A stretch of 64,000 nt of DNA from an uncultured Chloroflexia bacterium (GTDB taxonomy: Bacteria; Chloroflexota; Limnocylindria; Limnocylindrales; CSP1-4), in the NCBI GenBank assembly GCA_963704145.1, contig CAVPHB010000002.1, positions 259,878-323,877 of the forward strand, written 5' to 3'. A program made the position numbers and the translations under genes. Shown here in pieces: positions 1 through 61,576 of this stretch. The notes under the pieces were generated by a model. That model saw only the letters and a list, made by a program, of their open reading frames with translations, did no database searches and had not been told where the DNA came from. Position 1 is the stretch's first letter. Each line of letters starts with the position of its first letter.

Positions 1-3000
1 TGACCATGCCCGCATCGTCATAGCCATAGGTGGTCGTGTTGCCGTTGGGTGCGCTGATGGATGAGGGTTGGCCGTCGGCTCGGTAGGTCCAGTCAAAGCT
101 CGTGCTGCCATGCACCGGATCGGTCAGTGTGACCTGGCGGTCGAAGGCATCGAGCGTCGCGCTGTAGCTGCCCGACGGGTCGGTCCACGTCGGCGAGGTC
201 AGGTCGTAGGTGTAGCTCGTCGTGGCAGCGGTATCGCCGGTCACGCTGACCGTCAAGGGCCGGTTGAGCCGGTCGTAGGTCGTGCTGATCGTGCTCGTCG
301 AGCTCGAGGCCTGGGTGCGGCTGCCGGCGACGTCGTAGCTGTAGGTCGTCGTGTCGGCGTCGGTGATCCGTTGGTGCACGCGCCCGGCGGCGTCGTAGGT
401 CCAGGCGACGAGAGTAGGCATGGTGCCCGTACCGCGCTCGCTCTGGCTGATGCGCCGGCCCAGAGCGTCGTACTCGTAGGTGGTCGAGTTGCCCAGAGCG
501 TCGGTGATCGTCGACATCCGCCCGCTCGCATCGTAGCCGTAGTCGGTGGTGCTGCCGCGGCCGTCGGTCATGGTGACCATGTTGCCCAGGGCGTTGTAGG
601 TATAGGTGGTCCAGACGTTGGCTGTCGTGCTGCTGCTGCCAGGGTCTACGCACGGGTTGGGCGACGCGAGCGCGACCGTCGCGTTCTCAAGTACGCCGCA
701 CAGGCGGTTCTGATCGTCAAAGGCGTAGCGCGTGGTGACGGTGGCGGTCGATGTGCCGCTGGTCGCCGACGGATCGGCGGCGACGAGCGCCACCCGGTTG
801 CCGCGCGTGTCGTACTCGTACCTGGTCACAAGGTTGGTCTGTGCGTCGATCGTCCCGCCGCCGGCACACTCCGCCCACGCCTCCGCATCGACGCAGTTAC
901 GGATCTCCGCTTCGAGATGGCCATCTTCGTCATATAGGTAGGCGGTGACAGCAAAGGTGTCGCGGTCGACTGTCGGCGCACGGACTGCGCTCTGGCGACC
1001 GGCATCGTCGTAGGCGTAGAAGGTCGATAGGTCCTCATCGTCCAGCGGCGTGCCGGCGACATCATTGTCGATACGCTCGACGAGCCGGTCGGCGGCATCA
1101 TAGACGTAGGTCGTCACACGGCCGTTGGGCGCGGTCTCTGTTGCCACGTTGCCATGACTGTCATAGGTGCGGCTGGTGGTCACGTTCCAGGTGCCGTCGT
1201 CGAGCGTGCTGCCGTCGCAGTCCCACCAGCTGCCTGTCGGCGGTGCGGGGCTTGACGTGTCCTCGGTGCAGTTGACGATGGTGGTGATCACCCGGCCATC
1301 AGAGTCGTAGAGGGTTCGCGTGACCGTGCCGCGCGCGTCGCGCAGCGCCTGACGCCGGCCGGCGATGTCATAGGCGTAGTCGTAGCTGGCTTCTGCACTG
1401 GTGCCCACCGCAGTCGCGACGCCTATCGCCGCGCCAGAGCCGTCGTACTCGGTGACGGTCGTGATGTTGGTCGTCGCGTCGGCCGTGCCGCCGGTGCATT
1501 CGTCTGGTGCGGCGCCCTGCTCAACGCAGTTGGCGATCGATGTGACCACCAGGCCGCGCATGTTGTAGATCGAGCGGCTGCTGATGCCTTCGTTGTCGGT
1601 GAACGCGACGGTGCGCCCGGCGGCGTCATACCAGGTCGTGGTGGTCACGTCCTCGGTCGGCAGCGTCGGTGTGGCCACATCATTGGCAACGACAACCGTG
1701 ACCCTATTGAGCGCGTCGTATTGGGTCGTAGTCACGACACTGTCGGGATCGGTCGTCGAGACCTGGTTGCCGGCGTGGTCGTAGGCGTAGCTCGTGGTGG
1801 CGCCAGCGACAGTCGTGCTGACCACCCGTCCGAGACGGTCATAGGTGGTGGTCGTGACGATGCCATCGGGGGTGGTCGAGCTCGTCTCGCGTCCGAGCAG
1901 ATCGTAGGTGTAGGTGGTCTCGAGCTCGGCGCCTTCCGGGGCGAGAATCTCGCTCATCGGCCGTCCGCCGATGTCGTAAGTGGCTGTGTTGGTCACATCG
2001 GTCGGGTCGCTCGCCGCGACGGTCAAGCCGCGTCCGTCGAAGGACATCACGCTCGTGCTCGAGGCGACCGACAATTCGATCGCGCGGCCCAGACCGTCGA
2101 AGTCCTGCGCGGTCGTCACGCCGCCCGATGTGGTCTCGATGACGTTGCCCGCCTCGTCGTATGTCGTGCTGGACTCGACGCCGGCCGGGTCGGTGACTTC
2201 GATCTGGCGATTGCGATTGTCGTACACATAGGTCGTGGTGCGCGTGGTGCCCGTCCACGAGTCGGCCTCGGTCAGCACGTTGCCATACGAGTCGTAGGTC
2301 ATTGTCCGCGTCAGCGCCTCGATTGACGCGTCACCGGGCAGGGCCTCAGTCAGCTGCCGCCCGAGCGCGTCGTAGGTGTAGCTCGTGGTGGCGCCCACCG
2401 GATCGGTCGAGCTCGCCAGCAGCCCGGCAGTGGTGTAGGTGAAGGTTGTCTCTACGTTCTGGTCCGCTGTCTGCGCACCCTGGTCGACGAAGTTGGCGAC
2501 CAGGCTGATCTCATTGCCGTGGGTGTCATAGGCATGCTTGGTCACCCGCCCGAGCGGATCGGTCTCGGTCTCGAGCTCGTCGTCGGCGGTGTAGGTGTAG
2601 CTGCTGACGATGTTGGTGGAGGCGTTCTGAGTGCCAGCGCCCGTGCAGGTACTCGCGTCGCCGGGCGGTATCGTGCCGCTCGAGGTGCAGTTCTCGGTCA
2701 CGCCCGTGAGGTGGCCAGAGCCGTCGTACACATAGAGGGTGACTAGCTTCAGATCTGAGTCGTTGTCTGCTTCCGAGCGGGTCACCAGATCGTTGGTCGC
2801 GTTGTAGCTCATCAAGGTGGCCACCGACGTGCTGTCGGTCAGCTGGGTCGACTGGGAGAGCACGTTGCCGCGCGCGTCATAGGTGTAGCTGATCGTCTGG
2901 TCGACCACCGGCGGGCCGGTGTCGATGGGCAGCGAGAGTTCGGTCAGGTTCGAGTCGGCGTCGTACTCGTAGGCTGTCGTATAGCCCTCCGGGTCAAGCG

Positions 3001-3341
3001 CCTCGGTGACGCGCCCGAGAGCATCGAGCGTGTACGTCCAGGTGTCATGGACCGGCCCATCAAAATCCCTGAGCAGGTCGACGGTCGTCTCCAGACCGTC
3101 GTAGGTGAAGGTGTTGTTGGGAACCACTGGCACGACTTGCAGACCGGGCAAGCGCACCTCGCTGACCTTGTCATCGGTGTAAGTGACCCACCAGAGCCGC
3201 CAGTAGTGGAAGCTACCGATCTTCCAGCCAACCGCGGTCGCCCCGCTCGTGTCATACGCGAGCGTGAATTCGACGTCCTCGGGGTCGGTGATCGAAGCCA
3301 GCTGACCCGAGGTGTAGACGAATTGCCACTCGCGTCCTGCC
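1..3341 (-). CDS. RHS/YD-repeat shell of a giant secreted polymorphic-toxin-type protein. Partial: the 3' end lies beyond the left edge. Same gene as 3252..4802, after a frameshift.
   Basis: The minus frame with codon starts at coordinates = 1 mod 3 has no stop anywhere in this interval, which is why it is absent from the ORF track. Hand translation gives canonical YD repeats: AGREWQFVYTSGQLASITDPEDVEFTLAYD from 3340 downward, TISYTYDARGNVLSQ further on, and NGNTTTYGYDDAGMV at 58..2. Confidence 0.85.
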
Positions 3342-4802
3342 GAAATCCGTGGCCGACGTGATAAGCCCCCCGCTGATGACGAAATCGGTCTCGCGCCCAG
3401 ATGCGTCGGTCGCTGTCGCATCGTTGGCGTTCCAGTCGAGCGTGAGCGCGTTGCCGAAGCAATTCTCGATCCGCTCCAGACGTCCGGCACTGGCATCCTC
3501 AAAGACGTAACGCATCTGGTCCTTGGTGATGATCGTGTAGGTGCTGCCGCTCGTCGCGCTCAGCGTCTCGAAATGACCGGCGGGCGGCGTCCAGGTGCTG
3601 CCGTCGAGGGTGAAGGTGACCAGACCGCCATCGGGCCGGTGCCAGCCGACGAGACCAGTGTCGAAGGTCAGGTGTTGGGTCAGGTTGCTGCTCCAGCCGG
3701 TACCGAAGTAGGCGCTGTCGGGGTTCTGCGAGCTGTAGCTGAGCGAGAGGGCCTGGGGTGGTCCGTATGAGGGGATGTCGAAGAGGTGCTTGTCGATCGT
3801 CAGCTCGCCGTTGTGCACCCCGACCGCCATCCGCCAACCGGCACCGAGATCGAAGGGCACCCGTGTGTAGAAGGCCTCCTCGCCACGCATCGGGTCGGCC
3901 ACGACCTGAGCGGTATAGACGAACGAGGCGGGGGCCGACCACTCCGATTGGCCGACGCCGTCCTTGACCTTGACGCGCCACCAGTAGGTGTTGCCGTAGG
4001 TCATGGTGGGCCCGCTGGTCGGGAAGGTCCACGACGCGTCGTTACCGGCGGCCCACTTGCCGCTCGCGCCATCGGTCGTCTCGCGCACTATCGTCGCGAA
4101 AGTGTTGGAAGTCGCCACCTGGACCCAGTAGTCGCTCTGCGGGGTGCCGTATGTCGCGTCACCGTTGTCATACGTCCAGGCGAGTGTCTCGCTACCCGGC
4201 GCACCACCGACCGGAGTGGTCGGCGTCGCGGTCGGTCGGTGCCAGCTGACCACCAGATGCGGGCGCAGGGAAAGATAGGGCGAGGTCTGGTTGCCCGACA
4301 CGATGCGCTTCCAGTTGCCCTGGCCGTTGGGGTTGGCATGGATCATGAAGCCGTTGTTGTTCTGGGCGATGTTGATCACGTCCTGGACGTAATCGGTGAC
4401 ATCGGCCTCGTCGGACCACTGGCCCTGGGTCGTATAGAACTCGGAGTAGTCGCTCGAGGCGACGGTCGGGCGGTTGTTCCAGGTCACCTGACCGACGGTC
4501 CAGTCCTGCGTCACGAGGCGCAGGTAGCTCTTGCGTGGCGTGGAGTGGTAGTACTGCCAGTAGGGGTAGAACTGGAGTGCCGCGCCGTCGACATGGACGT
4601 AGTCGCCGATCGTCGTGCGGATGTCCTTGAAGCGCATGTAGACCTCGTTGTAGTACGAGGTCCCGGGCTCGTTGCCATGCCACATCTCGTAGTAGTAGGG
4701 CGAGTCCGGTCGCTGGTAGGTGTTGAAGTTGCTCGTTGGGTACTTGCTCGACGCGAATGTGTCCTGCGCGGTGGTGCTCGTGCCATACGGGAAATCGGTC
4801 AC
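3252..4802 (-). CDS. Middle part of the same giant protein: DNRLRE-type domain, a beta-sandwich region and the first YD repeats.
   Basis: 516-aa ORF. It carries VTWNNRPTV and GFMIHANPNG motifs typical of DNRLRE-domain proteins, then GTGWSSNL...YVFEDASAGRLERIEN RHS-type repeats. The last ~25 aa are out of frame, and the true frame continues at 3340. Confidence 0.85.
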   Translation of the reverse strand: MTDFPYGTSTTAQDTFASSKYPTSNFNTYQRPDSPYYYEMWHGNEPGTSYYNEVYMRFKDIRTTIGDYVHVDGAALQFYPYWQYYHSTPRKSYLRLVTQDWTVGQVTWNNRPTVASSDYSEFYTTQGQWSDEADVTDYVQDVINIAQNNNGFMIHANPNGQGNWKRIVSGNQTSPYLSLRPHLVVSWHRPTATPTTPVGGAPGSETLAWTYDNGDATYGTPQSDYWVQVATSNTFATIVRETTDGASGKWAAGNDASWTFPTSGPTMTYGNTYWWRVKVKDGVGQSEWSAPASFVYTAQVVADPMRGEEAFYTRVPFDLGAGWRMAVGVHNGELTIDKHLFDIPSYGPPQALSLSYSSQNPDSAYFGTGWSSNLTQHLTFDTGLVGWHRPDGGLVTFTLDGSTWTPPAGHFETLSATSGSTYTIITKDQMRYVFEDASAGRLERIENCFGNALTLDWNANDATATDASGRETDFVISGGLITSATDFGRTRVAIRLHLGSAGFDHRPRGRRIHARV

Positions 4803-4898
4803 GGTCGGATCGACATAGACCGGGTAGACCGCCGCAGCGAGGAACTCGGGCCCGATCGTCAGGGTCAGCAGCGTCGCGGTGCGCGTCTGGGTGACTAC

Positions 4899-5735
4899 CT
4901 AGGTCACTGCCTCCGCGTACAGCCCACCGCCGCGCCCTTCAACATCTGATGAATCCATCAGGAACGGCCGCGGCAAGCGTCCTACGATCGCGCCCTTCTC
5001 GTCGCGGATCTCGATTGAGCCGTCGTCTTGCGCGACGAACGTCAGCCCGGGCGCGTCGATGGCCAGACTAAAGGTGCTCGTTGCAGGCTTGGAGGGCAGG
5101 ACGAGGAACGTCTTCACCCCGTCGGCGCTCGGGAAGACGCGCAATCCGATGCCGCCGGGCAGAAAGTCGGCGTAGTCGGCGAACAGGCCGTCCTCCATGA
5201 CCACCGGTGCGCTCGCTGCGCGGCCGGCGGCGGTGCCCGCGGGCAGGCCGAAGCTGATCGTGCGGCCAGCGCCAGTGATTGACACGAACCCGCCGGCATC
5301 GTCGCCAAGGTTGAGGGACAGGCGCGCGGGCGCCTTGTCGACCCGAGCCTTCTCGTCGCTGCCAGCGACTGCTTCGAGGCGGGTGTCGATTGGCTGCCAG
5401 TCGGTGCGGCCCTCGGGCTGGTAGTAGATGGCATCGGTGTACAGCTCGGTCACGAAGCTGCCGTCGAACTTCTCATAGGTCCTTGTATCCGCGGTGCGCA
5501 GGTCGATGCGCTCGACGCCAGGAGGCTCGTCCGCCGCGGTAGGTGGCGCTACGGGCAAAGGGCTTGGAGCGGCCGGCTCATCAGCCGGCGGCGGAGTGAC
5601 CTCCGGTTGCTCGGCTGGTGGCGGCGAAGGCTCGTCGCCCAAAACAAAAGCCGGTGACGTCGCACCGGCTCCAAACAAAATCGCGCTGGTCACCATCATG
5701 GCCAGCCAACGGCTCGCGGCTGCGGAGTGCATCAA
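4899..5735 (-). CDS. N-terminal part of the same giant protein: signal peptide plus a shared N-domain. It ends at an in-frame TAG.
   Basis: 278-aa ORF with signal-like MMHSAAASRWLAMMVTSAILFGAGATSPAFV. It is in the same frame as 3252..4802, and the 32 intervening codons are open and protein-like. Confidence 0.75.
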   Translation of the reverse strand: MMHSAAASRWLAMMVTSAILFGAGATSPAFVLGDEPSPPPAEQPEVTPPPADEPAAPSPLPVAPPTAADEPPGVERIDLRTADTRTYEKFDGSFVTELYTDAIYYQPEGRTDWQPIDTRLEAVAGSDEKARVDKAPARLSLNLGDDAGGFVSITGAGRTISFGLPAGTAAGRAASAPVVMEDGLFADYADFLPGGIGLRVFPSADGVKTFLVLPSKPATSTFSLAIDAPGLTFVAQDDGSIEIRDEKGAIVGRLPRPFLMDSSDVEGRGGGLYAEAVT

Positions 5736-5856
5736 ACCCCTCGCACACTCACGGCTGCCGCTTCACCGCCGGGCAGGACGGTCGATCAGCTGCCGTTCGC
5801 CACGGTAGGCGCGCCATCGCCGGCGGTCAAGTGACGGGTTGCCGAGGGTGGGTTGC

Positions 5857-6080: not shown

Positions 6081-8801
6081 ATGGTCGGCGAGCGACCGCT
6101 AACCGACGGACATTCTGCCCGCCGACGGAAGACGGCCGCGAGGGGAGAGCGATCAGTGCGTCGCCTTGTCGTCACACGGTGGCTGGTCGCGGTCATCACG
6201 GCTACTCTGCTGTTCCAAGCTGGCGCTGTCGCGCCAGCTTTTGTCACAGCCACCGGTCAAATCGGCTCCACGATCGATTCTGATCCTGCTGCACCCGAGC
6301 GGCTCAACTCAGTGCCGCTCGCGCGCCGCCAGCCTGTTGCGCCGGTAATCGTCGAGGGCACATCGGGTGGCGTCACGCCGCCGCTCGGCGTAACGGTTCG
6401 TGCTGCGCCCATCGCCTATCAGCCTCCCGAGAAACCTGACGAGGTCGAGGCGCTGCGCTCCGAATTCGGTCGCGTCGTTGCCCAACCCGATGGCTCCTTT
6501 ACGGCCGAATACTTCATGGGCCGCGTCAACTTCCTCGACGCCGACGGCGAGTTCCAACCAATCGACCTCAACCTCATACCTGATGCCGACACTCGCTATG
6601 GCCTACGAACGACCGCGAACAGTTTTGATTTACGCATAAGCGCCCGCGGCGACAGCGCGGAGCTGGCCGAACTCAGTCTCGGAGACCGGGTCATCCGCCT
6701 GCGCCACGCCAGCCAGCCATTCGGTGATCCGGCTCGCTCGCCCGATGGCGTTACATACCCGTCGGCAGCAGACCGTGGCCAGGTCTCGCTCCTCCCAACA
6801 CCAGAAGGACTCGAGTTCACCGTCACGTTGGCTGACAAGACGCAAGGAGGCACGTACCAATTCATCCTCGATACAGGCGGGCTGAAGGCCGAGCCCGGGC
6901 CAGAGGGCCGTGGGGTGCTGCTGCGCGATGCCACGGGGGCTGTCGTTGCCTCTGTCAGCCCGCCGACGATCTTCGACGCAACCGAGCGACCCGCGCCGCG
7001 GAACGCGATAACCACGTTGGTCAGCGGCCCGGCCTCAGTTCCGGCTCCCGACGCGCCCGCCACGGCGCTGCCGTCTCCCTCGCCTTCATCGCCAGATGAA
7101 GCAACTACCCCATCCGAGAGCCAAACGGCTCCTCCAGAGTTACCCCAGCCGCCCGTTATTGCCGAGTTGCAATCACCTTTGCCTTCGGCCGACCCCGAGA
7201 CTTCGCCGACCCCGACGTCATCTCCGCCGACGCCTGGCCTCGATCTTGACCTAGCACCAACCGAGGTCCTGCTTACCTACACGATCGACCCGACCTGGCT
7301 GGCCCAGCCTGAAGTCGCCTTTCCGGTCGTCCTCGATCCCACCATCTGCGTTCAAAAGGGCCAGACAGTCGCCGCGGACGGCTGCGACTCGCTTGCGAGC
7401 AGCACCGGGTATCTCGACCACTTCATCTTGGGCGGGCTACCGAACTACTACCCGTACAACTGGACCTACGTCCGCGTTGGTAAGGACGCGCAGGGCGACG
7501 GCTACGGCAACATGCGCGCCCTCTTCTACTTCCCGGACGTGGCGCTGCCTGACGGCGGCCAGCTCACCAACGCCACCTTGCGTCTGCGCGAGAACGCCAA
7601 CTTCGGCAGTAATCAGCAAATCTACTTCAGCCTGATCACGAAGGGCTGGCACGCCCAGACGACGTGGAACTCGCAGCCAACCTATGGCGCAACCACGTCA
7701 CCGATCTCAGTTCTCAACAGCGGTTCGCTGCCGGACTTCCTAAATGCCGACGTGACCGATCTGGCGCGCACCTGGTACACGCGCAACGCGAACGATTGGC
7801 AGGCAAATCTCGGACTCATGGCGCGCCTCGTGACCGAGACCCAGAGCGAGGTCAACTTTCGCAACAAGGCCTTCAATACGGTCGACTATCGGCCACGCCT
7901 GGCGATCACCTATGTCGTGCCCAAGGTCTCGATCGATTTCGACACGGCGACTCTCGGCGCAGACTTCGTGCCGACCACCATGCCGGCCGGCTTGACCCTC
8001 GGTCTGCCGGTCAAAGTCACCAATGACAACTCTGGTTTCGCCTTCAACCACTCGGGCAGCGATCGCTTCGCGCTGGGCTACCGCTGGTTTGACGCTGCGG
8101 GCAAGCCGGTCGTCCAGTCAGGCTTCCAGAACTGGGGCGTATCGGCGCTGCCGGCGACGATCAACAACAACGCCACCAGTGCGGTGATCAACGTTCCGGT
8201 CAGCGCACCGCCGCAAGTTGGCCAATACGCGCTGCGATTCGACCTCGTGCACGTGGTCGGCGCGGCCAATGTGTGGGGGTCGGACTTCGCCAGTCCGAGC
8301 CTGTATTACAGCGGCGCGCGAGCCTCGGCCGAGACCTCGAACACACGCGTCGTAGGTAGTTCGGTCGTCGAGCGGGCCGACTTCACGGTCGCCGTCGTCG
8401 GCGGCGGAGGCACGGCAGTCGGCGAGATGGAGTCGGTCGGACTAGCAGATGGCTCGACGCTGGGCGTGAACCTGTGGTCGCGCAACCTGCACTTCGATGG
8501 ACATAGCATTTCTGAGCTGCGAGAGGTGGTCGGCAGCTGGGATCGCGGCACTTTCCGGAGTCGAGCCGATTCGATTAGATACCATCACCCGAAGCACGCC
8601 CCTGGTCAGTCCGTACTGGAATACACGCGAGAAGCGCGGTCGTTCTTCACGGCAAATCGGTCTCAGTTCCGCCCGGTGACTCCAACGAAACCCGGATGGA
8701 AGCCCGCACTCCGTCTCAAGACGGCGACCAAGACCGGCTGGTTCACGCCGCACGGGCGCATCCTCACGTACTGGAGGAAAGAGGCGACCGGTGCATTTTG
8801 A
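6081..8801 (+). CDS. Secreted DNRLRE-domain protein, a paralogue of the N-terminal third of the giant RHS gene. It lacks the RHS shell and ends in a foreign ~98-aa C-terminal module.
   Basis: 906-aa ORF. The likely start is GTG 6156, after GGGGAG, giving VRRLVVTRWLVAVITATLLFQAGAVAPAFV. It has a PT-rich linker and the DNRLRE signature (ATLRLRENANFG...TTWNSQPTYG). Homology to the paralogue stops at GVNLWSRNLHFDGH (~8504). Confidence 0.85.
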   Translation: MVGERPLTDGHSARRRKTAARGERSVRRLVVTRWLVAVITATLLFQAGAVAPAFVTATGQIGSTIDSDPAAPERLNSVPLARRQPVAPVIVEGTSGGVTPPLGVTVRAAPIAYQPPEKPDEVEALRSEFGRVVAQPDGSFTAEYFMGRVNFLDADGEFQPIDLNLIPDADTRYGLRTTANSFDLRISARGDSAELAELSLGDRVIRLRHASQPFGDPARSPDGVTYPSAADRGQVSLLPTPEGLEFTVTLADKTQGGTYQFILDTGGLKAEPGPEGRGVLLRDATGAVVASVSPPTIFDATERPAPRNAITTLVSGPASVPAPDAPATALPSPSPSSPDEATTPSESQTAPPELPQPPVIAELQSPLPSADPETSPTPTSSPPTPGLDLDLAPTEVLLTYTIDPTWLAQPEVAFPVVLDPTICVQKGQTVAADGCDSLASSTGYLDHFILGGLPNYYPYNWTYVRVGKDAQGDGYGNMRALFYFPDVALPDGGQLTNATLRLRENANFGSNQQIYFSLITKGWHAQTTWNSQPTYGATTSPISVLNSGSLPDFLNADVTDLARTWYTRNANDWQANLGLMARLVTETQSEVNFRNKAFNTVDYRPRLAITYVVPKVSIDFDTATLGADFVPTTMPAGLTLGLPVKVTNDNSGFAFNHSGSDRFALGYRWFDAAGKPVVQSGFQNWGVSALPATINNNATSAVINVPVSAPPQVGQYALRFDLVHVVGAANVWGSDFASPSLYYSGARASAETSNTRVVGSSVVERADFTVAVVGGGGTAVGEMESVGLADGSTLGVNLWSRNLHFDGHSISELREVVGSWDRGTFRSRADSIRYHHPKHAPGQSVLEYTREARSFFTANRSQFRPVTPTKPGWKPALRLKTATKTGWFTPHGRILTYWRKEATGAF

Positions 8802-8848
8802 GAGATTTAGTGACGCCGTCAACGTGACATTTGTGGATCGCACCATGG

Positions 8849-9169
8849 ATGCTGGTACCTGAGTTGCGTGACTTACTGTCTCGGCTCTTTCAGCATCATC
8901 GAGATAAACCTGTGCCCGATCAGATTCTGTCAAGCCCTGCGGATCTGGTGCTCACGGACGAAATCGTGGCCGGAATTGCCAGCCACTATCTCCTAAATCA
9001 CAGGCCGGTCTCGCAGGAGCATCGAGACGTATTAGCTCACGCTAGCTCAGAGATCATGACCGCAATGTCGTGGCCCGATCTACACCAAGACGCCCTCGAA
9101 TATCTGCAAGAGCTCCAAGCGATATGCATCGAGCTGTCCAAGCCCGTCGACGGACGGATGACCGGCTGA
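8849..9169 (+). CDS. Small helical protein, a candidate immunity partner of the C-terminal module upstream.
   Basis: The track ORF is 8831..9169, with the first ATG at 8849 (MLVPELRDLLSRLF...). It sits 47 nt after the stop of 6081..8801, shares its low-GC3 codon usage, and has acidic, helical composition. I recognise no family. Confidence 0.5.
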   Translation: MLVPELRDLLSRLFQHHRDKPVPDQILSSPADLVLTDEIVAGIASHYLLNHRPVSQEHRDVLAHASSEIMTAMSWPDLHQDALEYLQELQAICIELSKPVDGRMTG

Positions 9170-9876
9170 CCCTGCCCACCTCCCGGCTGTCGGTCCGCCA
9201 TCCGGAACAAGCTCCTTTGGAAGATGGGATCGGACGTATGAACACGGATGAGCGATCGAATTCCTTCGAGCGCATCAACCTATGCCGGCCGACCCTGAAC
9301 TGTCCGAGGATCTGCTAACGACTTATGCCGTGAAGTACCCGCCCGCGGGAGTCTCCGCCTGTCTACGCGGCGATCCAGCCGATGAGTGGCGCCGATGCTG
9401 GCGACGAGTTCACCACACCACCCGGACAGCTGACCAGTTGCTTACGAGCTCGCGCCGGCGGACATTGCCCCTCCGCCGGAGCTCCTCGATCCCGGGGCTA
9501 GAAACGGAATACGGTCGGCGCCACTGTTGTCACGGGCTTCGACATCGACTCGCAGTCAAGTCTCGTCGCGGGACGTCTTCCATTCAGCGCACGGCTCGCC
9601 GACACAAGGACCATAGCTCGCAGCCAGTTCCCCGGATCGAGCGCCTACGACGGGGCGAGTTCGGTGTTCTGGGCCGGGAAGCCGTCAATTGGTGGGGTCG
9701 CGGGTTGACGAGCCACGCGGGGAAAGGCTCCGGGAGATCTGCCCTGTTGACGTGCCCACGTTCACGCAATCGAAGAGCGCGAGATTGGCCCGCAGGTAAT
9801 GGCGCGTACAGCCGATAACTGTACCTATTTCGCTCGCGCTCCCACGCAGAGAGCCACAGCGCATAGCCCGGCAGGC

Positions 9877-9913
9877 TCAAAAGTCCCCTGCTCTGCCGCT
9901 GAGCTACCGGCCC
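9877..9913 (-). other. tRNA-like 5' half: acceptor 5' strand, D arm and 5' anticodon stem/loop. Not a complete tRNA.
   Basis: The minus strand reads GGGCCGG TA GCTC AGCGGCA GAGC A GGGGA CTTTTGA. The D arm is textbook. The next bases (GCCTG...) do not pair with GGGGA, and no T arm or 3' acceptor strand follows. Confidence 0.3.
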
Positions 9914-10010
9914 GCGGCCCTATCTTCCCACGCTGTCGGCGAGACGATGGCCGCGCCGTGTCCTAAGGACCGATTGACGCCGGTCGAGGTAGTCGGGCTC
10001 GCGCCCTGAC

Positions 10011-12095
10011 TCAGTACCCCAGGGTGACGTACACCGTCGGGTTCGGATTGGCATCCTGGTTGAAAGACCAACCCGCTGTGGTCATGCACAGAGCGGCCCG
10101 GGGCAGGGTGGGGCCGAAATACGGGTACGAGTCCTGGATCGTTGCGATGATCGCGTCCCAGCCGGACACGAAGAACGTCTGCGTCCGGGTCGTCGGATCG
10201 GTCGAGCGGAGCGGGATGTTGCGCAGGATCGTCACATTGGGACACGATGCCAGTGACGGGCCGGTGGGGTCATCGAGGTAGGTGATCGTCAGCGTCACGG
10301 ACTTTCCGTCGGCGGCAATCTCGCCCGCCAGATCCTTGATCCGCGTTTCGGACGGCTGCTTCCCGAAGGTGCGCGGGCCCGTCGCCTGGACCTTCAGGTC
10401 GGCGAGATGCGTGTCGCGCACGAACGAGCCGGCGATATCCATCCGCACGGCGACGCCGACCGGCCCGCTCGGTCCGGCCGTCAGGCTCGGCGAGGCGGCC
10501 GCGACGAGATTCACCTTCAGCCGCACGAAGTTGAGATACGCCCAGACGTCGCCCGTCCGCCCATAGACGAGCACGCCGAGCGCGTTCTCGCCATCCTGGA
10601 GCTCAATCCTCTGCGAGCTCCCCCATGGGCCGAGCGGCGTCGCCGACGTTCCGCGATAGATCTGCATGGTTCGGTATGAGCTCATCATGAGTTGTACCGT
10701 CAACGTCTTCTCCGCCGTCCGATAGCCATCGACAAGCGTATCCAAAGAGTTATCGGCGGTGAGCGCGTCGAGTTCATACGGCGGGAAGACTGCGTCGCCC
10801 GCCGCTCCGGCCTTGAACTCTTCCCAGTGGGCCGCGATCCCCTCCTCCGAAGTCCTGGACCGCCATGGGAGGTACGTGAAGCGGGTGTAAAGTTTGCCTC
10901 CGTTGGCCAGGATCTCGGCCGCGTTCTCGCCCGAGCTATAGGGTCCGAGCTTCCCGGTCGCGGGGTCATAAGGGATCGTGCGCAGCCTGGCTGGATAGTT
11001 CGGGTCGGCTACGAAGAGCTGATCCTTCTCGACCCGATAGACGACCATCGCGTGCGCTACGTGCCTTGCGTCGTTCCCGATCCAGACCAGTTGGGGTTCG
11101 GCGCTCGTCGATATCGCAGCCCGGAACGTCTCATAGGTGGCCCTGTCGTTCGGCTCGTGCAGGAAGTTGCGGAAGTATTGGGAGCTGAAAGGGTTGGCGA
11201 CCGGGTCGACTTGCACGGCTGAGGCGAAGCGGTAGCCGTACGAGTCGTCAGGCCAGAAGTCCGGCGTCTTCGTGCCCTGACCGTTGTTGTCGTAGACGCC
11301 ATAAAGCCGATGCGCGGCCGCCTTTCGATACTGATTCACGTAGTACCAGATCGCGGTGCTGCTCTGCCCATTGCAGTGGCCGCCCGGTGCGACGTAGGAG
11401 CCGAAGTTGGTGAACTCCCAGTCGTCCTTGCCGGGCCGGAAACCGGAGTCGGCGGTGGTGGGCAAGACCGTCGAGTCGACCAGAGCGCCGAAAAGCGACG
11501 AGAAATGAGTGGCGCCGACGGTCAGGCTCGAACCGTCCTGGGATATCGGGATGAGCGGCGTGATCGTGCCGGCGGTGTCGTCGTACGAGAAGCCCATCGC
11601 CAACGCGCCGGCAGGGATCGCGGCCGACATGGTGAGGGTGACCAGCGCACTGAGCGCCGCCTCGCCGTCGTTGACGAGGTAGAGCGGCGTGATGGGCGTG
11701 ACGAGGCCGCCAAAGTCCGCGCCTGTGATGGTGGCCTGCTGGACGTGGAACGCGGTGTCGCCCGAGAGCGCGCCGTCGGGGATCGAGATACTGAGCCCGC
11801 TCGCCTCGAGGATGCCGCCGCCGGCGCCAATCGTCTGGCTGACGAGGTCTGTCGGTGACCCGAGCGTGAGGTGGCCCAGGGCCGGCACCGTCTCTTCATC
11901 AGCCGGGATGTCGCCCACCTCCTCCGGGACCGGAGGCGTGAGGTCGCCGGGGTCGCCGGCCGCGGGCGGCGTGGCGCCGACCGCCGTGCTCTCGGTCGGC
12001 GACCCGCCCGGCACAGGCGACACGGTGATGCAACCGCTGACGAGCATCACGACAAGCGCCACCGCGGCGGTTAGGGGGGCTTGACGCCGTTGCAT
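10011..12095 (-). CDS. Lipoprotein with a papain-like (C39/transglutaminase-like) Cys-His-Asp core and C-terminal beta-rich domains.
   Basis: 733-aa ORF. The probable start is ATG 12095 (MQRRQAPLTAAVALVVMLVSGC, with a lipobox). The candidate catalytic residues are GGHCNGQSSTAIWYY, VAHAMVVYRV and FVADPNYP, in papain-fold order. Confidence 0.8.
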   Translation of the reverse strand: MQRRQAPLTAAVALVVMLVSGCITVSPVPGGSPTESTAVGATPPAAGDPGDLTPPVPEEVGDIPADEETVPALGHLTLGSPTDLVSQTIGAGGGILEASGLSISIPDGALSGDTAFHVQQATITGADFGGLVTPITPLYLVNDGEAALSALVTLTMSAAIPAGALAMGFSYDDTAGTITPLIPISQDGSSLTVGATHFSSLFGALVDSTVLPTTADSGFRPGKDDWEFTNFGSYVAPGGHCNGQSSTAIWYYVNQYRKAAAHRLYGVYDNNGQGTKTPDFWPDDSYGYRFASAVQVDPVANPFSSQYFRNFLHEPNDRATYETFRAAISTSAEPQLVWIGNDARHVAHAMVVYRVEKDQLFVADPNYPARLRTIPYDPATGKLGPYSSGENAAEILANGGKLYTRFTYLPWRSRTSEEGIAAHWEEFKAGAAGDAVFPPYELDALTADNSLDTLVDGYRTAEKTLTVQLMMSSYRTMQIYRGTSATPLGPWGSSQRIELQDGENALGVLVYGRTGDVWAYLNFVRLKVNLVAAASPSLTAGPSGPVGVAVRMDIAGSFVRDTHLADLKVQATGPRTFGKQPSETRIKDLAGEIAADGKSVTLTITYLDDPTGPSLASCPNVTILRNIPLRSTDPTTRTQTFFVSGWDAIIATIQDSYPYFGPTLPRAALCMTTAGWSFNQDANPNPTVYVTLGY

Positions 12096-12205
12096 CGCGC
12101 CCGACGGTCGGCGCAATCCCGGTTCGCCGCAAGTGCCGTTCGGCTCGTTCGGCTCGTTCGGGCCGGCCGTCCCGAGCGGACACCCCTCCGCTCGCTCACC
12201 GTGGC

Positions 12206-12345
12206 TTACCACCCGTCGTTGAGCTGGATCGTCGGCACGCTGCTCCAGGGGCCGAGCGGCGTCGATGACGTACCCGGAAAGACCTTTGTCGCCACGTCGT
12301 TGCCCTGCGACGGGACGTAGGCGAACCCCATGTAGACGGTCGCAG
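12206..12345 (-). pseudogene. Relic copy of an internal segment of the neighbouring lipoprotein.
   Basis: The tail of the 122-aa ORF (ATVYMGFAYVPSQGNDVATKVFPGTSSTPLGPWSSVPTIQLNDGW) aligns with LTVQLMMSSYRTMQIYRGTSATPLGPWGSSQRIELQDGE of 10011..12095. The upstream part of that ORF is antisense to a PT linker. Confidence 0.35.
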
Positions 12346-58276: not shown

Positions 58277-58451
58277 GACACTCCCAGTGTCACGAATCGG
58301 CCTTGCTGCCTCGGCAGGAGGTAATCCGCGGCTCCCTGGCACCCGTGCCGTGATCGGTTGGGCGTGGATTCCGGCCGAATCGGCACTCAACGGCACGGTG
58401 GAGGTTCTGGCAGTCGCAGATAGTTGCCTTGATGACACTCCCAGTGTCACG
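58277..58451. repeat. Twin 18-nt palindromic motifs bounding a ~140-bp structured non-coding segment.
   Basis: gacactcccagtgtcacg occurs at 58277-58294 and again at 58434-58451. Each copy contains GACACT ccc AGTGTC. Between them lie further inverted repeats (ctgcc tc ggcag; gtgccg...cggcac). Confidence 0.6.
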
Positions 58452-58541
58452 CCACTTCGCAGAGCGGGCGGGCGGTACGCCTAGCAGGCGTTCAGCCAGC
58501 GGATGCGTACGGACGCACTCGTATCACCGTTCAGCCCGCTT

Positions 58542-59505
58542 TCATTGTTGGAAGCGTGCTCGCCAGTCATAGTCCGTGTTAGCCAGAGACGAAACGGTCC
58601 GGCTCCAGTTGCCAGCGCTGTTGGTGGTCACGGTAGTGTAAGTATTGAAGTTGCTTTGACCATGCGGCGCCCGCTCGATGACTACCGTTCTCGATCCCAG
58701 GTCGTTACTTCCGAGCATTCCGTATCCGCTCAGGTCTTGGACACTGAGGTTTCCCGAAAGTGTGGCCGATTCGCCTAGACAGAGGATCGTAGCGGTAGTC
58801 GCGAATATTGCCGTTGTCTTCAGGCCGTTCGCGCCAGCGTTAGGCAGGCCATCCAAGCAGCTAGCGTATGTAATCGATGTGCTCGTCAGGTCGTACAGCA
58901 GTTGGAGCCGTGCCTGATCGCAACTCTTGTAGACGTGGATCTGCCAACCGTCTCCGTTCTTGGAGTGGACCACTTGGTACATAATTGTCATGGCCGTGTT
59001 ATCGACGGGATTGTGGCCAAGTCCGGCAACGTGGCCCACCTCATGGAGCGCGACACGTTCAACGTCCCAGCACGTTCCGTTGTTCACATTGTCACACCAT
59101 CGAACCGTGAAGTCATCGAACACCCTCCCATGTTCGATGAACCTGATTTCCCATGTGTCGTGATTGACGTTCTTGTCAGCGCATGCCAAAGCGGGGCCGC
59201 CACACCCCCCATTGACGTAGTAGATGGTCCCCTCGCCTGAGGAACTGTACGAAAGTTGGGGAGCGCGAGAAGCGCGCGTTGCATTGGAGTCCGCAAGTGC
59301 GTCCAGAATTGGATCCTGCATCCATCCGCTAGGCGGCGGGTTCGTTGGTCGACCAGCGCGCATGAAGGGTGACGCTCGGATCCCAGTATCCGGTGCCGCT
59401 CGTTGGATCCGGCCCTATAGCCGCTGCCTCGCTTGGCGATGCCGTGAAGAGCACGAAGATGAACAGCCAGATACTCGTCAGCTTGCTTACCCTCACGACA
59501 CTCAT
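58542..59505 (-). CDS. Secreted metzincin-type zinc metalloprotease with a C-terminal beta-rich domain. One frame switch.
   Basis: Zinc site HEVGHVAGLGH, followed by a Met-containing turn (AMTIMY). The signal peptide MSVVRVSKLTSIWLFIFVLFTASPSEA starts from ATG 59505. The switch is at about 59340. G+C is markedly lower than in the flanks. Confidence 0.8.
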
Positions 59506-59507
59506 GG

Positions 59508-59553
59508 CCCTCACAACCCTCACAACCCTCACCAACCCTCACCATCCTCACCC
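59508..59553 (-). repeat. Imperfect 9-10-nt tandem repeat (about 4.5 units) abutting the metalloprotease start codon.
   Basis: The plus strand reads ccctcacaa ccctcacaa ccctcaccaa ccctcaccat cctcaccc. On the coding strand this is (TTGTGAGGG)n, ending 2 nt before the ATG. Confidence 0.8.
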
Positions 59554-59598
59554 ACCCCAGTTACCTCACGAGCCTCACGACTCCCGTACCCCCGATCA

Positions 59599-60888
59599 TC
59601 ACCGGGTCAGGTCAAAGGCAGGGACATCAATCATCTCGCCATCGGAAATGCGGACCAAAACCCGACCATTGACTCCGCCTTCGTCCTGAGATGACCGAGG
59701 TATTGGCCGGCCGCCCGGAAACACCGCTATCCAACCAGGTGGTGCGGCCACATTGTCGGTGGTCATTGGCAGGACCATCGAAGTTGGCGCGTCGTACCAT
59801 GGCGCACCCCCGACAAATATGGTCCGGTCGTCGCCCTCGCCAGTTGACGCATTTATAGCGTACCGATCATCCCCTTCGTGACCATCAAACAACAGCACCG
59901 GTGTTCCATCCTGTGCAGCTACAATCGCCGCCGACCGTCCCTCACTAGAAACGAACGTTTGGGCAGACCAGTCCTCGATGTCCAGCGCTAGCAGAGGGAA
60001 TTCAAGTACCTGCCCATATGCGCCCTGCTCGTAGACAATCAGCCGATTGTCCAAGAAGCCGATCGGGGGCCCGAAACTTGTATCGAGCAACTGCCCAACC
60101 GGTTCAAGATTGGCGTTGAAGAGACGATAGCTGTAACCGTCCGATCGCTCGCTCCAATTGGAGAACACCATAATGCTGCCGTCGATGGAGAAAACTAGAT
60201 TGGGCCCTGGCCCATCCCATCCATCAAGGACCTTTTCCGATTCCAGTCCCGAGGTTGGTTGACGCCAGACTCCTGATACGGACCCGTCGTCATCCAGAGT
60301 CGTCCACAGCAGGCTCGCGCCGTCAGGTGTGATCGCACCGGAGGCGAGGCGCTGGTGGGATCGCACCATTTCACGGGTACTCCCGTCCACCGTGTCGATG
60401 AGACTCAGCACACTTTCGTCGGCGTCGAGCCAGAGAGAGAGATACTCGCCGTTTACTGGACCAGCGCGGTTGCCCGGCGCGGTGACCGGCTGCCCAGAGT
60501 CGATGGCTTCGAACGCGCGCCCATCGAGCCTACCGGTGTACAGGCTCCAAAAGTCGCTGCCTTCGTTGGGCAGCCACTGAAGCCACGGGGAAGATGCGAG
60601 GTCGACTAAGCCCGCTGATTCGGTTGGAAACGGGGTCGGTGAGTCCTGAGCATCTCCGGACGGCGTTGGCGCTGGGCTGATGGTCGGCGGGTCCGGGCTG
60701 CCAGGCGGACTGGTCGGCTGCGGAGTCTGGCCTATGGACGAGGATGGGGAGGGACTGGCGCCGATTGGTAGCCAAGCGCATGACGTCAAGCTTGCCGCGG
60801 CGAGCGCAAGTAACGCTAGCCGGCGCACCAATAGCCTTCCAGACGACCGATGGCGGAATCGATACCCGTGAATACATGACCCGATCAT
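59599..60888 (-). CDS. Lipoprotein with a probable beta-propeller (TolB-like) domain.
   Basis: The ATG at 60888 is one start option, and GTG 60828 is another. Lipobox: RRLALLALAAASLTSC. A PS-rich linker is followed by repeated D-G/W-rich strands. Codon usage is low-GC. The upstream 218 aa of the 647-aa track ORF are rejected. Confidence 0.75.
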   Translation of the reverse strand: MIGSCIHGYRFRHRSSGRLLVRRLALLALAAASLTSCAWLPIGASPSPSSSIGQTPQPTSPPGSPDPPTISPAPTPSGDAQDSPTPFPTESAGLVDLASSPWLQWLPNEGSDFWSLYTGRLDGRAFEAIDSGQPVTAPGNRAGPVNGEYLSLWLDADESVLSLIDTVDGSTREMVRSHQRLASGAITPDGASLLWTTLDDDGSVSGVWRQPTSGLESEKVLDGWDGPGPNLVFSIDGSIMVFSNWSERSDGYSYRLFNANLEPVGQLLDTSFGPPIGFLDNRLIVYEQGAYGQVLEFPLLALDIEDWSAQTFVSSEGRSAAIVAAQDGTPVLLFDGHEGDDRYAINASTGEGDDRTIFVGGAPWYDAPTSMVLPMTTDNVAAPPGWIAVFPGGRPIPRSSQDEGGVNGRVLVRISDGEMIDVPAFDLTR

Positions 60889-61023
60889 TAGCCACACACC
60901 ATCTGACCTGGTATCACGCCGATGCTGGGCGCCCCACAGGACGTCATGTTGGCATGGTTTGGACGTGCATCGATGAAGTTGCGTGACGCGCCGAATGAAT
61001 TGGCCCGGAGCAAGCTGCCGCAT

Positions 61024-61134
61024 CAAGGCTGCCGACGGGTCGTTTCGACTTTCTCGAGCAGGGAGCGCGTGGCGGCCTCGAACCGTTCGAGCCAGTGGCG
61101 CCACATCTCGGTGTGCAGCTCGACCTGGGCGGCC
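61024..61134 (-). pseudogene. Relic duplicate of the 3' end of the SRPBCC/AHSA1-like gene immediately upstream.
   Basis: SAAAQVELHTEMWRHWLERFEAATRSLLEKVETTRRQP, bounded by stops, aligns with HAEAELHTEMWRHWLARFEAATRALAHATEET at the end of 61160..61576. The two copies share a 22-nt identical core, gccacatctcggtgtgcagctc. Confidence 0.55.
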
Positions 61135-61159
61135 GCGCTCTACGGCGGGTGACGGCGAG

Positions 61160-61576
61160 CTAGGTCTCCTCCGTGGCGTGGGCCAACGCCCGCGTTGCCG
61201 CTTCGAAGCGGGCCAGCCAATGACGCCACATCTCGGTGTGCAGCTCCGCCTCGGCGTGCGTTGGCAGACCGACGTGGCGCAGCGTGACGAGCGTCCGGCC
61301 GCCGTGCTCGATGGCGTCGAAGGCAACAACGCTCGGCGCGCCGACCGGTTCACTCGACCAGCGCCAGGTGAAGCTGATATGCGTTGGCGGGTCGTACGCG
61401 AGCACCTCGCCGACCGCCTGCCCGTCGAGCATCTGGACGCGCAGCGATCCACCGACGCGCGCCTCGACCTCGGCCGCGTCGAGCCACTGGCGCAGGCCGT
61501 CGGTGGTGGCCAGGAGCGAGAAGACGGCGGCGCGCGGGGCATCGACCACGACCTGCAGCTCGGCCCGCTCGCTCAT
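61160..61576 (-). CDS. SRPBCC / AHSA1 (Aha1-like) family protein.
   Basis: The ATG at 61576 (MSERAELQVVVDAPRAAVFSLL...) overlaps the upstream stop (ATGA). The layout is typical of the family (PP..ISFTW.W, LTLRH.G). Confidence 0.8.
   Translation of the reverse strand: MSERAELQVVVDAPRAAVFSLLATTDGLRQWLDAAEVEARVGGSLRVQMLDGQAVGEVLAYDPPTHISFTWRWSSEPVGAPSVVAFDAIEHGGRTLVTLRHVGLPTHAEAELHTEMWRHWLARFEAATRALAHATEET

Follow-up and report, generated by a model that had tools for sequence, protein, structure and literature searches.

Bacillus subtilis WapA is a Gram-positive-type Rhs toxin, and Poole et al. are said to have described, in 2011, 'orphan' toxin-immunity modules of Rhs and CdiA. Here we consider a 906-residue open reading frame (ORF) and the 106-residue ORF that follows it on the forward strand of a 64,000-nt stretch of DNA from an uncultured Chloroflexia bacterium (contig CAVPHB010000002.1; 'the window' denotes this whole stretch). 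The pair is probably a polymorphic-toxin tip with its immunity gene on a truncated WapA/Rhs-type scaffold, the tip being, to judge by its modelled fold, a colicin-like BECR ribonuclease (RNase). Like the orphans, it would be a rearrangement product of an rhs locus, with toxin tip and immunity gene retained although the delivery gene is no longer complete; the orphans, however, normally keep a 3' piece of the RHS core and have no start or signal, whereas the window fusion is without the core but retains the 5' 807 codons, start and export signal included. As in WapA, including Streptococcus suis WapA-CT1 (PMC12704120), an N-terminus with an export signal and a DNRLRE domain precedes a C-terminal toxin and a downstream immunity gene; unlike WapA, the window protein lacks the YD shell, an autoproteolytic release site and a pre-toxin segment, and of the plug it retains only ~11 residues. 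The same source describes an export signal with a DNRLRE surface domain, as seen here, and 'truncated duplications' that are orphan-like modules (PMC12704120).

The tip itself is best compared with the 'Colicin-like' group of BECR toxins, whose core alpha-beta1-4 unit is preceded by a pre-alpha helix; conserved His and Lys/Arg are distributed over that helix and beta4, and tRNAs make up most of the substrates (10.64898/2026.08.28.747851). Like the colicin D tRNase and the CdiA-CT domains of NC101 and O32:H37 (8ey4), the module is predicted to be a small alpha+beta domain with helices before a four-stranded sheet; like colicin-like BECR toxins in general it has conserved His and Lys on the helix before the core helix, is found at CdiA and Rhs tips, and is paired with what would be a small dedicated inhibitor. 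It differs from them in lacking detectable sequence similarity, in structural TM-scores of only 0.41-0.45, in an extra N-terminal helix, and in a YHxxKH motif with two invariant histidines. The RelE/ParE toxins of type II toxin-antitoxin (TA) systems share this broad fold class, and the module too occurs in free-standing two-gene versions; unlike RelE/ParE TA systems, however, the partner here is downstream, helical and devoid of a DNA-binding domain, and the family occurs mostly as tips of secreted multidomain proteins. A RelE-like type II TA system, in which a cytoplasmic toxin goes with an autoregulating, DNA-binding antitoxin that is usually encoded upstream, was considered for the window pair and rejected, as the partner is downstream with no Pfam domain and the toxin is fused to an export-type N-terminus. 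The features that concern us are the following.

6081..8801, forward strand: ORF of 906 residues, in which an N-terminal delivery or anchoring region is fused to the putative toxin module.
6081..8501, forward strand: N-terminal 807 residues, homologous to the N-terminal ~815 residues of giant RHS/WapA-type proteins.
6159..6251, forward strand: likely export signal, read by eye as an Arg-rich n-region followed by a hydrophobic stretch (RRLVVTRWLVAVITATLLFQAGAVAPAFVTA).
7455..7910, forward strand: DNRLRE / CBM96 domain (residues 459-610; NCBIfam NF033679, E 6.9e-16; CBM96).
8466..8501, forward strand: 'GVNLWSRNLHFD G', the first ~11 residues that align with the DUF6531-type plug of the minus-strand paralogue; homology to relatives ends at 8501.
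8502..8798, forward strand: C-terminal toxin module (residues 808-906) with a predicted colicin-like BECR fold; core 8505-8774, stop codon 8799-8801.
8583..8597, forward strand: H835-H-P-K-H839, with two family-invariant His (YHxxKH, helix 2), the proposed catalytic residues.
8849..9169, forward strand: all-helical ORF of 106 residues, member of the cognate downstream (immunity) family; its ATG lies 47 nt after the stop codon of the 906-residue ORF.

The C-terminal module is a complete domain of ~95 residues and one member of a large family. An exhaustive phmmer search against 1.84 billion cluster representatives recovered homologues in 208 clusters at E<=1e-3 (27 at E<=1e-10), the best full-module matches other than the protein itself being P0005 (2.2e-21) and P0006 (1.7e-18). 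These matches fall at the C-terminal end of proteins that range from 83 to 3445 residues, and 140 of 144 representative homologues continue for no more than 10 residues after the module. What precedes it is varied: SpvB with RHS (P0006, 2014 residues), DUF6531 with RHS, DUF6443 with RHS, PT-HINT proteins, CdiA-type proteins with DUF637 or Fil_haemagg_2 together with PT-VENN, and RHS with PT-HINT in a Microbacterium metagenome-assembled genome. In some small carriers there is nothing before the module but a signal peptide and a low-complexity linker (P0007, P0023, P0034, P0038, P0040), and in others the module stands free as an ORF of 83-102 residues, with the cognate ORF downstream (P0008, P0013, P0017, P0032, P0037, P0044). 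Carriers without a cage are common. One such module-only ORF with its partner (L004, 1281-1813) sits beside an FtsH-like gene and away from any delivery gene, and these free-standing pairs hint at a toxin-antitoxin-like use. A degenerate-motif scan of one genome per species found 51 loci across many phyla, every one of which was confirmed by the module profile. Varied carriers with the module as their C-terminal tip are what is expected of a polymorphic toxin system, and the occurrence on full-length RHS proteins (SpvB, DUF6531 and DUF6443 types) and on CdiA and PT-HINT carriers, together with the syntenic family of small ORFs discussed below, bears out the proposal of an earlier note, made from the window alone, that this is a toxin tip and immunity pair. 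That the 98 codons are non-coding read-through was also considered and rejected: an open run of this length has a chance of ~2.7%, and the frame matches a protein family with E-values down to 2e-21.

The family is invisible to most other searches. A word-indexed search with the module returned no match, the exhaustive search alone having recovered its relatives; across 43 members there is no consistent match in Pfam or NCBIfam, even at E<=1 and E<=0.1 respectively; a profile of the family compared with PDB sequences was negative; no curated BECR family (Colicin_D, Ntox, DUF4258 models and the like) matches in sequence; and tblastn of a family member against plasmids found nothing. Two side observations concern the carriers. 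In P0004 (3445 residues) 13 stretches match module residues 74-95, the last beta-hairpin ('GWFTPHGRILTYW'), which may be a chance resemblance to YD-type repeats that inflates the score of this protein. In L001, a classic orphan (10032-11863) follows the module-bearing Rhs protein P0006 and its 126-residue partner; it consists of a 267-residue ORF that starts inside the end of the RHS core ('...NLVDPSGL...') and a 139-residue ORF, and has the same hydrophobic pre-toxin segment with a different tip.

The ORF that follows the module is as constant a feature as the module itself. A small ORF was present after the module in every homologue locus fetched (L001-L007), and an ORF of 91-151 residues (433 in one case) comes right after it in 49 of the 51 genome loci. 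By BLASTP (E<1e-3), 40 of 57 downstream ORFs fall into a single cluster, among them the 106-residue ORF of the window, whose best pairs have E-values of 3.5e-5 and 4.3e-5. A profile built from the 39 members outside the window matches it with E = 5.3e-8 (28.9 bits, positions 7-102 of 107) and ranks it first among the 891 six-frame ORFs of the window, the runner-up having E = 2.6; an earlier immunity profile of 7 sequences had been only suggestive (E = 0.082). The window ORF is accordingly a conserved cognate gene downstream of the toxin, as in polymorphic toxin systems, and the synteny of small ORF and module that the earlier note had left to be checked is positive. It was not detected by other means: a word-indexed search returned the window's own protein alone, and no Pfam, NCBIfam or PDB sequence match or close homologue was found, nor any Pfam match to a DNA-binding domain. 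Codon-position G+C (GC1/2/3) is 0.68/0.36/0.62, of coding type. The gene caller's version (P0001) has 85 residues from a start at 8912 (GTG read as Met); the alignment of the immunity family retains an N-terminal helix, a Pro (P23) and a Gly (G42), and as the shorter version would cut off the conserved helix and Pro23, the ATG at 8849 is the better start. A single-sequence AlphaFold2 model has five helices at low confidence (pLDDT 59). We infer that this helical protein is the cognate inhibitor of the module and would neutralise it. A second family of downstream ORFs, of 129-151 residues and unrelated to the main one, occurs in L013, L020, L023, L030, L032, L034 and L046, and the two toxin sequences inspected among these, from L032 and L046, close with '...SYGR' or '...SFGKQ'. 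By family membership and syntenic partner, nt 8502-9169 can thus be described as a putative toxin and immunity cassette of a widespread polymorphic-toxin family.

What the module does is suggested by its predicted fold. AlphaFold2 with the 43-sequence alignment gave a model of high confidence (pLDDT 93.1, pTM 0.84) with the order H-H-H-E-E-E-E: helices at residues 5-14, 23-34 and 40-53, and strands at 59-61, 71-75, 79-83 and 89-94. In the alignment H30, H34 and G81 are invariant, and W15, T19, G37, Y43, T44, A47, F50, T84 and G87 nearly so; the window copy keeps all of them, H30 and H34 corresponding to H835 and H839. In Foldseek, the three best PDB matches are all BECR RNase toxins, weakly matched (E 0.013-0.33, TM 0.40-0.45), led by the CdiA-CT of E. 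coli O32:H37 (8ey4_A; E 0.013, Foldseek probability 0.98, TM 0.41/0.45), on which a literature search found no paper, and followed by the colicin D tRNase entries 1tfo and then 1v74; 5znm is also matched, and RelE, YafQ, ParE and the CdiA-CT of NC101 appear lower among the PDB matches. A library of viral structures gave weak matches, phage 'colicin D' and minor-capsid (MuF-type) proteins among them. In the model a pre-alpha helix and a core alpha helix are followed by four antiparallel strands, and H30 and H34 lie within helix 23-34, which would be the pre-alpha helix with its conserved His; their catalytic role is a prediction. A YHxxKH motif on helix 23-34 fits the definition of the Colicin-like group, and on that basis we assign the module, with fair though by no means full confidence, to a BECR RNase mechanism. 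As the structural matches are weak, the assignment leans on the fold class and on the two histidines. Weighing against it are precisely that weakness (best E 0.013, TM 0.41-0.45) and the want of any detectable sequence homology between the module and a characterised enzyme. The earlier note could place the module in no known toxin family, and in Pfam, NCBIfam and PDB sequences this holds; a fold class can nevertheless be assigned, if weakly.

Where the module begins can be fixed closely. Two relatives of the 906-residue protein mark the break. P0003 (1446 residues, 35% identity) is the only one returned by a word-indexed search; its alignment ends at F805 (nt 8495), while P0003 itself runs on and is followed by an overlapping gene of 1386 residues that reaches the end of the contig. 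The closest relative, found in a metagenome scan, is a 3696-residue ORF on L059 (8834-20561 of a 230-kb metagenome contig), 47% identical over 798 residues; it aligns through '...GINLWSRNLRFDG', which is G807 of the window protein (nt 8501), diverges beyond, and continues past the junction with 'AGGVGFSDRGGLLSLAYYYDS...', resembling P0003 at the same position. Both of these independent relatives extend thousands of residues past the junction. Matches to the C-terminal module family begin from the other side, at 8499-8538. P0003, L059 and the starts of the module matches together put the junction at 8501|8502. The AlphaFold2 model covers 8496-8798 and its first helix begins at residue 5 with pLDDT >90, so the fold begins a few residues from the junction.

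Base composition changes at the same place. G+C stands at 0.573 over 8505-9169, the window mean being 0.687 (standard deviation 0.039, z = -2.9), and third-position G+C (GC3) drops from 0.78-0.80 before the junction to 0.62-0.69 after it, so that the joint break in homology and composition claimed in the earlier note near 8500 is confirmed. Just one other island in the 64 kb is equally low (58400-60450, G+C 0.555-0.578 in 600-nt windows), and it overlaps minus-strand ORFs at 58542-59363 and 59599-61542. The landmark assigned to the break does need to be moved. It had been placed where the RHS paralogue on the minus strand enters its YD repeats; in fact the paralogue's equivalent motif ('GVHNGELTIDKHLFD') is the first residue of its Pfam DUF6531 match, so that the window protein holds just ~11 residues of the plug-aligned stretch before the break. 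The likeness of the two proteins is likewise real but weak, at 25% identity and traceable by BLAST only to about residue 617.

Upstream of the junction the scaffold is that of a WapA-type N-terminus, with the DNRLRE domain and the export signal listed above. The N-terminus resembles those of P0003 and of the minus-strand RHS paralogue; the gene caller's version of the ORF (P0002, 881 residues) starts 25 codons later. A locus search found no relative of the 906-residue protein among GTDB genomes. As the earlier note had it, the layout is a 906-residue ORF at 6081..8801 followed by a 106-residue ORF from the ATG at 8849, 47 nt past the stop, with no RHS cage and no DPxGL-type junction: CBM96 is the sole Pfam match, RHS_repeat and the YD shell are absent, no DPxG motif occurs anywhere in the protein, and no PT-HINT was found in the Pfam scan, leaving it without a release site. 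Of a DUF6531 plug before the shell there is only 'GVNLWSRNLHFDG', the counterpart in the alignment of the ~11 residues that open the paralogue's DUF6531 match. Both the DPxGL-type motif and PT-HINT are present among relatives that bear the module. In Rhs-borne homologues the module begins 65-270 residues after a DPxG[LWFMIH] motif, and in PT-HINT proteins ~16-30 residues after the 'HN' end of HINT; the fusion has none of the 65-270 residues of pre-toxin segment typical of the former. Cage, release motif and pre-toxin linker are all absent from it.

The full WapA layout, with RHS repeats and DUF6531 or PT-HINT, is found in L059, at the P0003 locus and in the minus-strand paralogue. After the shared N-terminus the L059 protein continues with RHS repeats, CBM_4_9 and Laminin_G_3 inserts, PT-HINT and a tip of ~115 residues, which differs from the window module and is followed by an unrelated ORF of 206 residues with no Pfam match. 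The two loci thus carry one scaffold, shared over the N-terminal ~810 residues, with different tips and different downstream ORFs; the tip and 206-residue ORF of L059 may be another unannotated toxin and immunity pair. A comparison of L059 residues 816-3696 with the window found no match other than the YD repeats of the other RHS gene, and the window shares no flanking synteny with L059 or L060. Around the cassette, neither flanking repeats nor mobile-element signs nor a terminator came to light.

We favour, with some reserve, the view that the fusion is a deletion remnant with a live immunity gene, an in-frame internal deletion being the simplest origin. The parental protein would have had roughly 3,700 residues and the architecture of L059, and would have ended in this module. 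In intact relatives of this kind the ~810-residue N-terminal region comprises the export signal, DNRLRE/CBM96 and surface domains resembling immunoglobulin (Ig) folds, and is followed by nearly 2,900 residues that comprise the plug, the YD-repeat shell, lectin-type inserts, the self-cleaving PT-HINT domain and the tip. One in-frame event, most simply an internal deletion, would have joined codon 807 to the first residue of the toxin domain, which is most likely a colicin-D-like (BECR-fold) RNase using the invariant His835 and His839 on its second helix. Such a deletion would explain the breakpoint, the missing ~2,900 codons, the want of any remnant in the window and, if the tip had been horizontally exchanged, its lower G+C. 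On our estimate the toxin domain is still enzymatically competent and the immunity gene still useful, while delivery into a competitor is probably impaired, since nothing is left to encapsulate, release or translocate the toxin. Several observations pull the other way. No close relative has the parental order of this N-terminus, RHS and this module, and deletion is therefore argued from architecture alone; the fusion is in frame and starts exactly at a domain boundary with 805 upstream codons intact, which would be expected too under selection; and short, secreted, cage-less forms of the module exist elsewhere (in the five small carriers above), so that loss of the cage is not proof of loss of delivery.

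These last points are the strength of an alternative that we consider clearly less likely, namely that the fusion is a working cage-less effector, whose export signal and DNRLRE/Ig region display or release the RNase domain directly; that it would enter targets without RHS encapsulation, as the small signal-peptide forms presumably do, we judge similarly. Presentation of the toxin would then fall to the DNRLRE/Ig surface scaffold, with neither an Rhs shell nor a release site nor an entry domain. In its favour, the join preserves the frame and coincides exactly with the N-terminal boundary of the fold, the family-invariant residues, the 805 upstream codons and the immunity gene are all intact, and there are homologues with just a signal peptide and a low-complexity linker before the module. 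Yet there is no release site (neither DPxG nor PT-HINT), the pre-toxin segment of 65-270 residues is missing, this combination of N-terminus and module occurs in no other of 152 retrieved proteins and 51 genome loci, the stop codon and frameshift of the neighbouring RHS gene suggest a decaying locus, and in Streptococcus suis a truncated WapA copy with neither a signal peptide nor a complete Rhs core was not delivered (PMC12704120). Unlikelier still is the compound proposition that module and partner are a previously undescribed RNase family, marked by YHxxKH and possibly directed at a new RNA target, and that the window protein is also a functional case of cage-less delivery; the family's novelty is here judged against Pfam, NCBIfam and PDB, a comparison outside which BECR-Tox1-5 stand (10.64898/2026.08.28.747851). 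The earlier note had described the toxin as welded directly to its delivery domain. The direct join is confirmed, and most plausibly stems from a deletion in a protein of ~3,700 residues rather than from design; in other respects that interpretation is supported and was largely right.

It is improbable that the cassette arrived as a free-standing, TA-like toxin-partner pair inserted into a giant gene whose remainder was later lost. Module-only ORFs of 83-102 residues do occur with the same partner beside housekeeping genes (e.g. L004, with its FtsH-like gene), G+C of the cassette is below that of its surroundings, and the fold class includes RelE, YafQ and ParE; but two events are needed where one deletion suffices, no gene remnant lies downstream, there are no flanking repeats and no mobile-element signature, and the partner is downstream of the toxin with no match to a DNA-binding domain. 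Slightly less probable again is an assembly artefact that joined unrelated places of a repeat-rich RHS locus at 8501|8502, for although such loci are prone to misassembly, the window seems to belong to a large contig (one of 394 kb has its own proteins on record), the neighbouring gene has apparent lesions and JGI metagenome contigs, searched for the junction with wobble allowed, gave no match (a null that shows only the genome's absence from that collection), the join keeps the reading frame and lies precisely on a domain boundary, no repeat being there, and the sequence is otherwise coherent on both sides.

Whether read as a remnant or as an effector, the pair is a compact handle on an uncharacterised toxin-immunity family, with a toxin of ~95 residues and a partner of ~105. 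The family spans many bacterial phyla and the Rhs, CdiA and PT-HINT delivery systems, yet has no Pfam-A, NCBIfam or PDB match, and a high-confidence model with two invariant histidines lends itself to direct testing by mutagenesis and RNA-cleavage assays. The locus further offers a natural experiment on the contribution of the Rhs shell, one N-terminal scaffold being available with the shell (L059) and without it (the window). It is useful as an experimental target of small size, and will not greatly surprise a specialist.

The neighbourhood of the pair contains two further features.

2..5762, reverse strand: RHS/WapA-type paralogue, context and not part of the cassette, with signal, CBM96/DNRLRE, Ig, DUF6531 and 13 RHS-repeat matches; runs off the window.
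10011-12212, reverse strand: ORF of 733 residues, convergent on the cassette, strongly coding in character (GC3 0.83) but without a Pfam domain.

The paralogue is divergent and of RHS type, as the earlier note held, but this giant gene is not one open frame. An in-frame TAG at 4899-4901 interrupts a conserved stretch ('...AEAVT*VVTQTRTATLL...'), and a one-base frameshift falls at ~3325-3345, between '...SATDF' and 'REWQFVY...'; the gene is either a pseudogene or affected by sequence errors. Between the immunity gene and the convergent ORF, some 840 nt (9170-10010) have no codon-position bias in G+C, and the ORF at 9282-9818 within them (GC1/2/3 of 0.65/0.63/0.65) has no Pfam or NCBIfam match; this segment may be decayed sequence left from the original locus.

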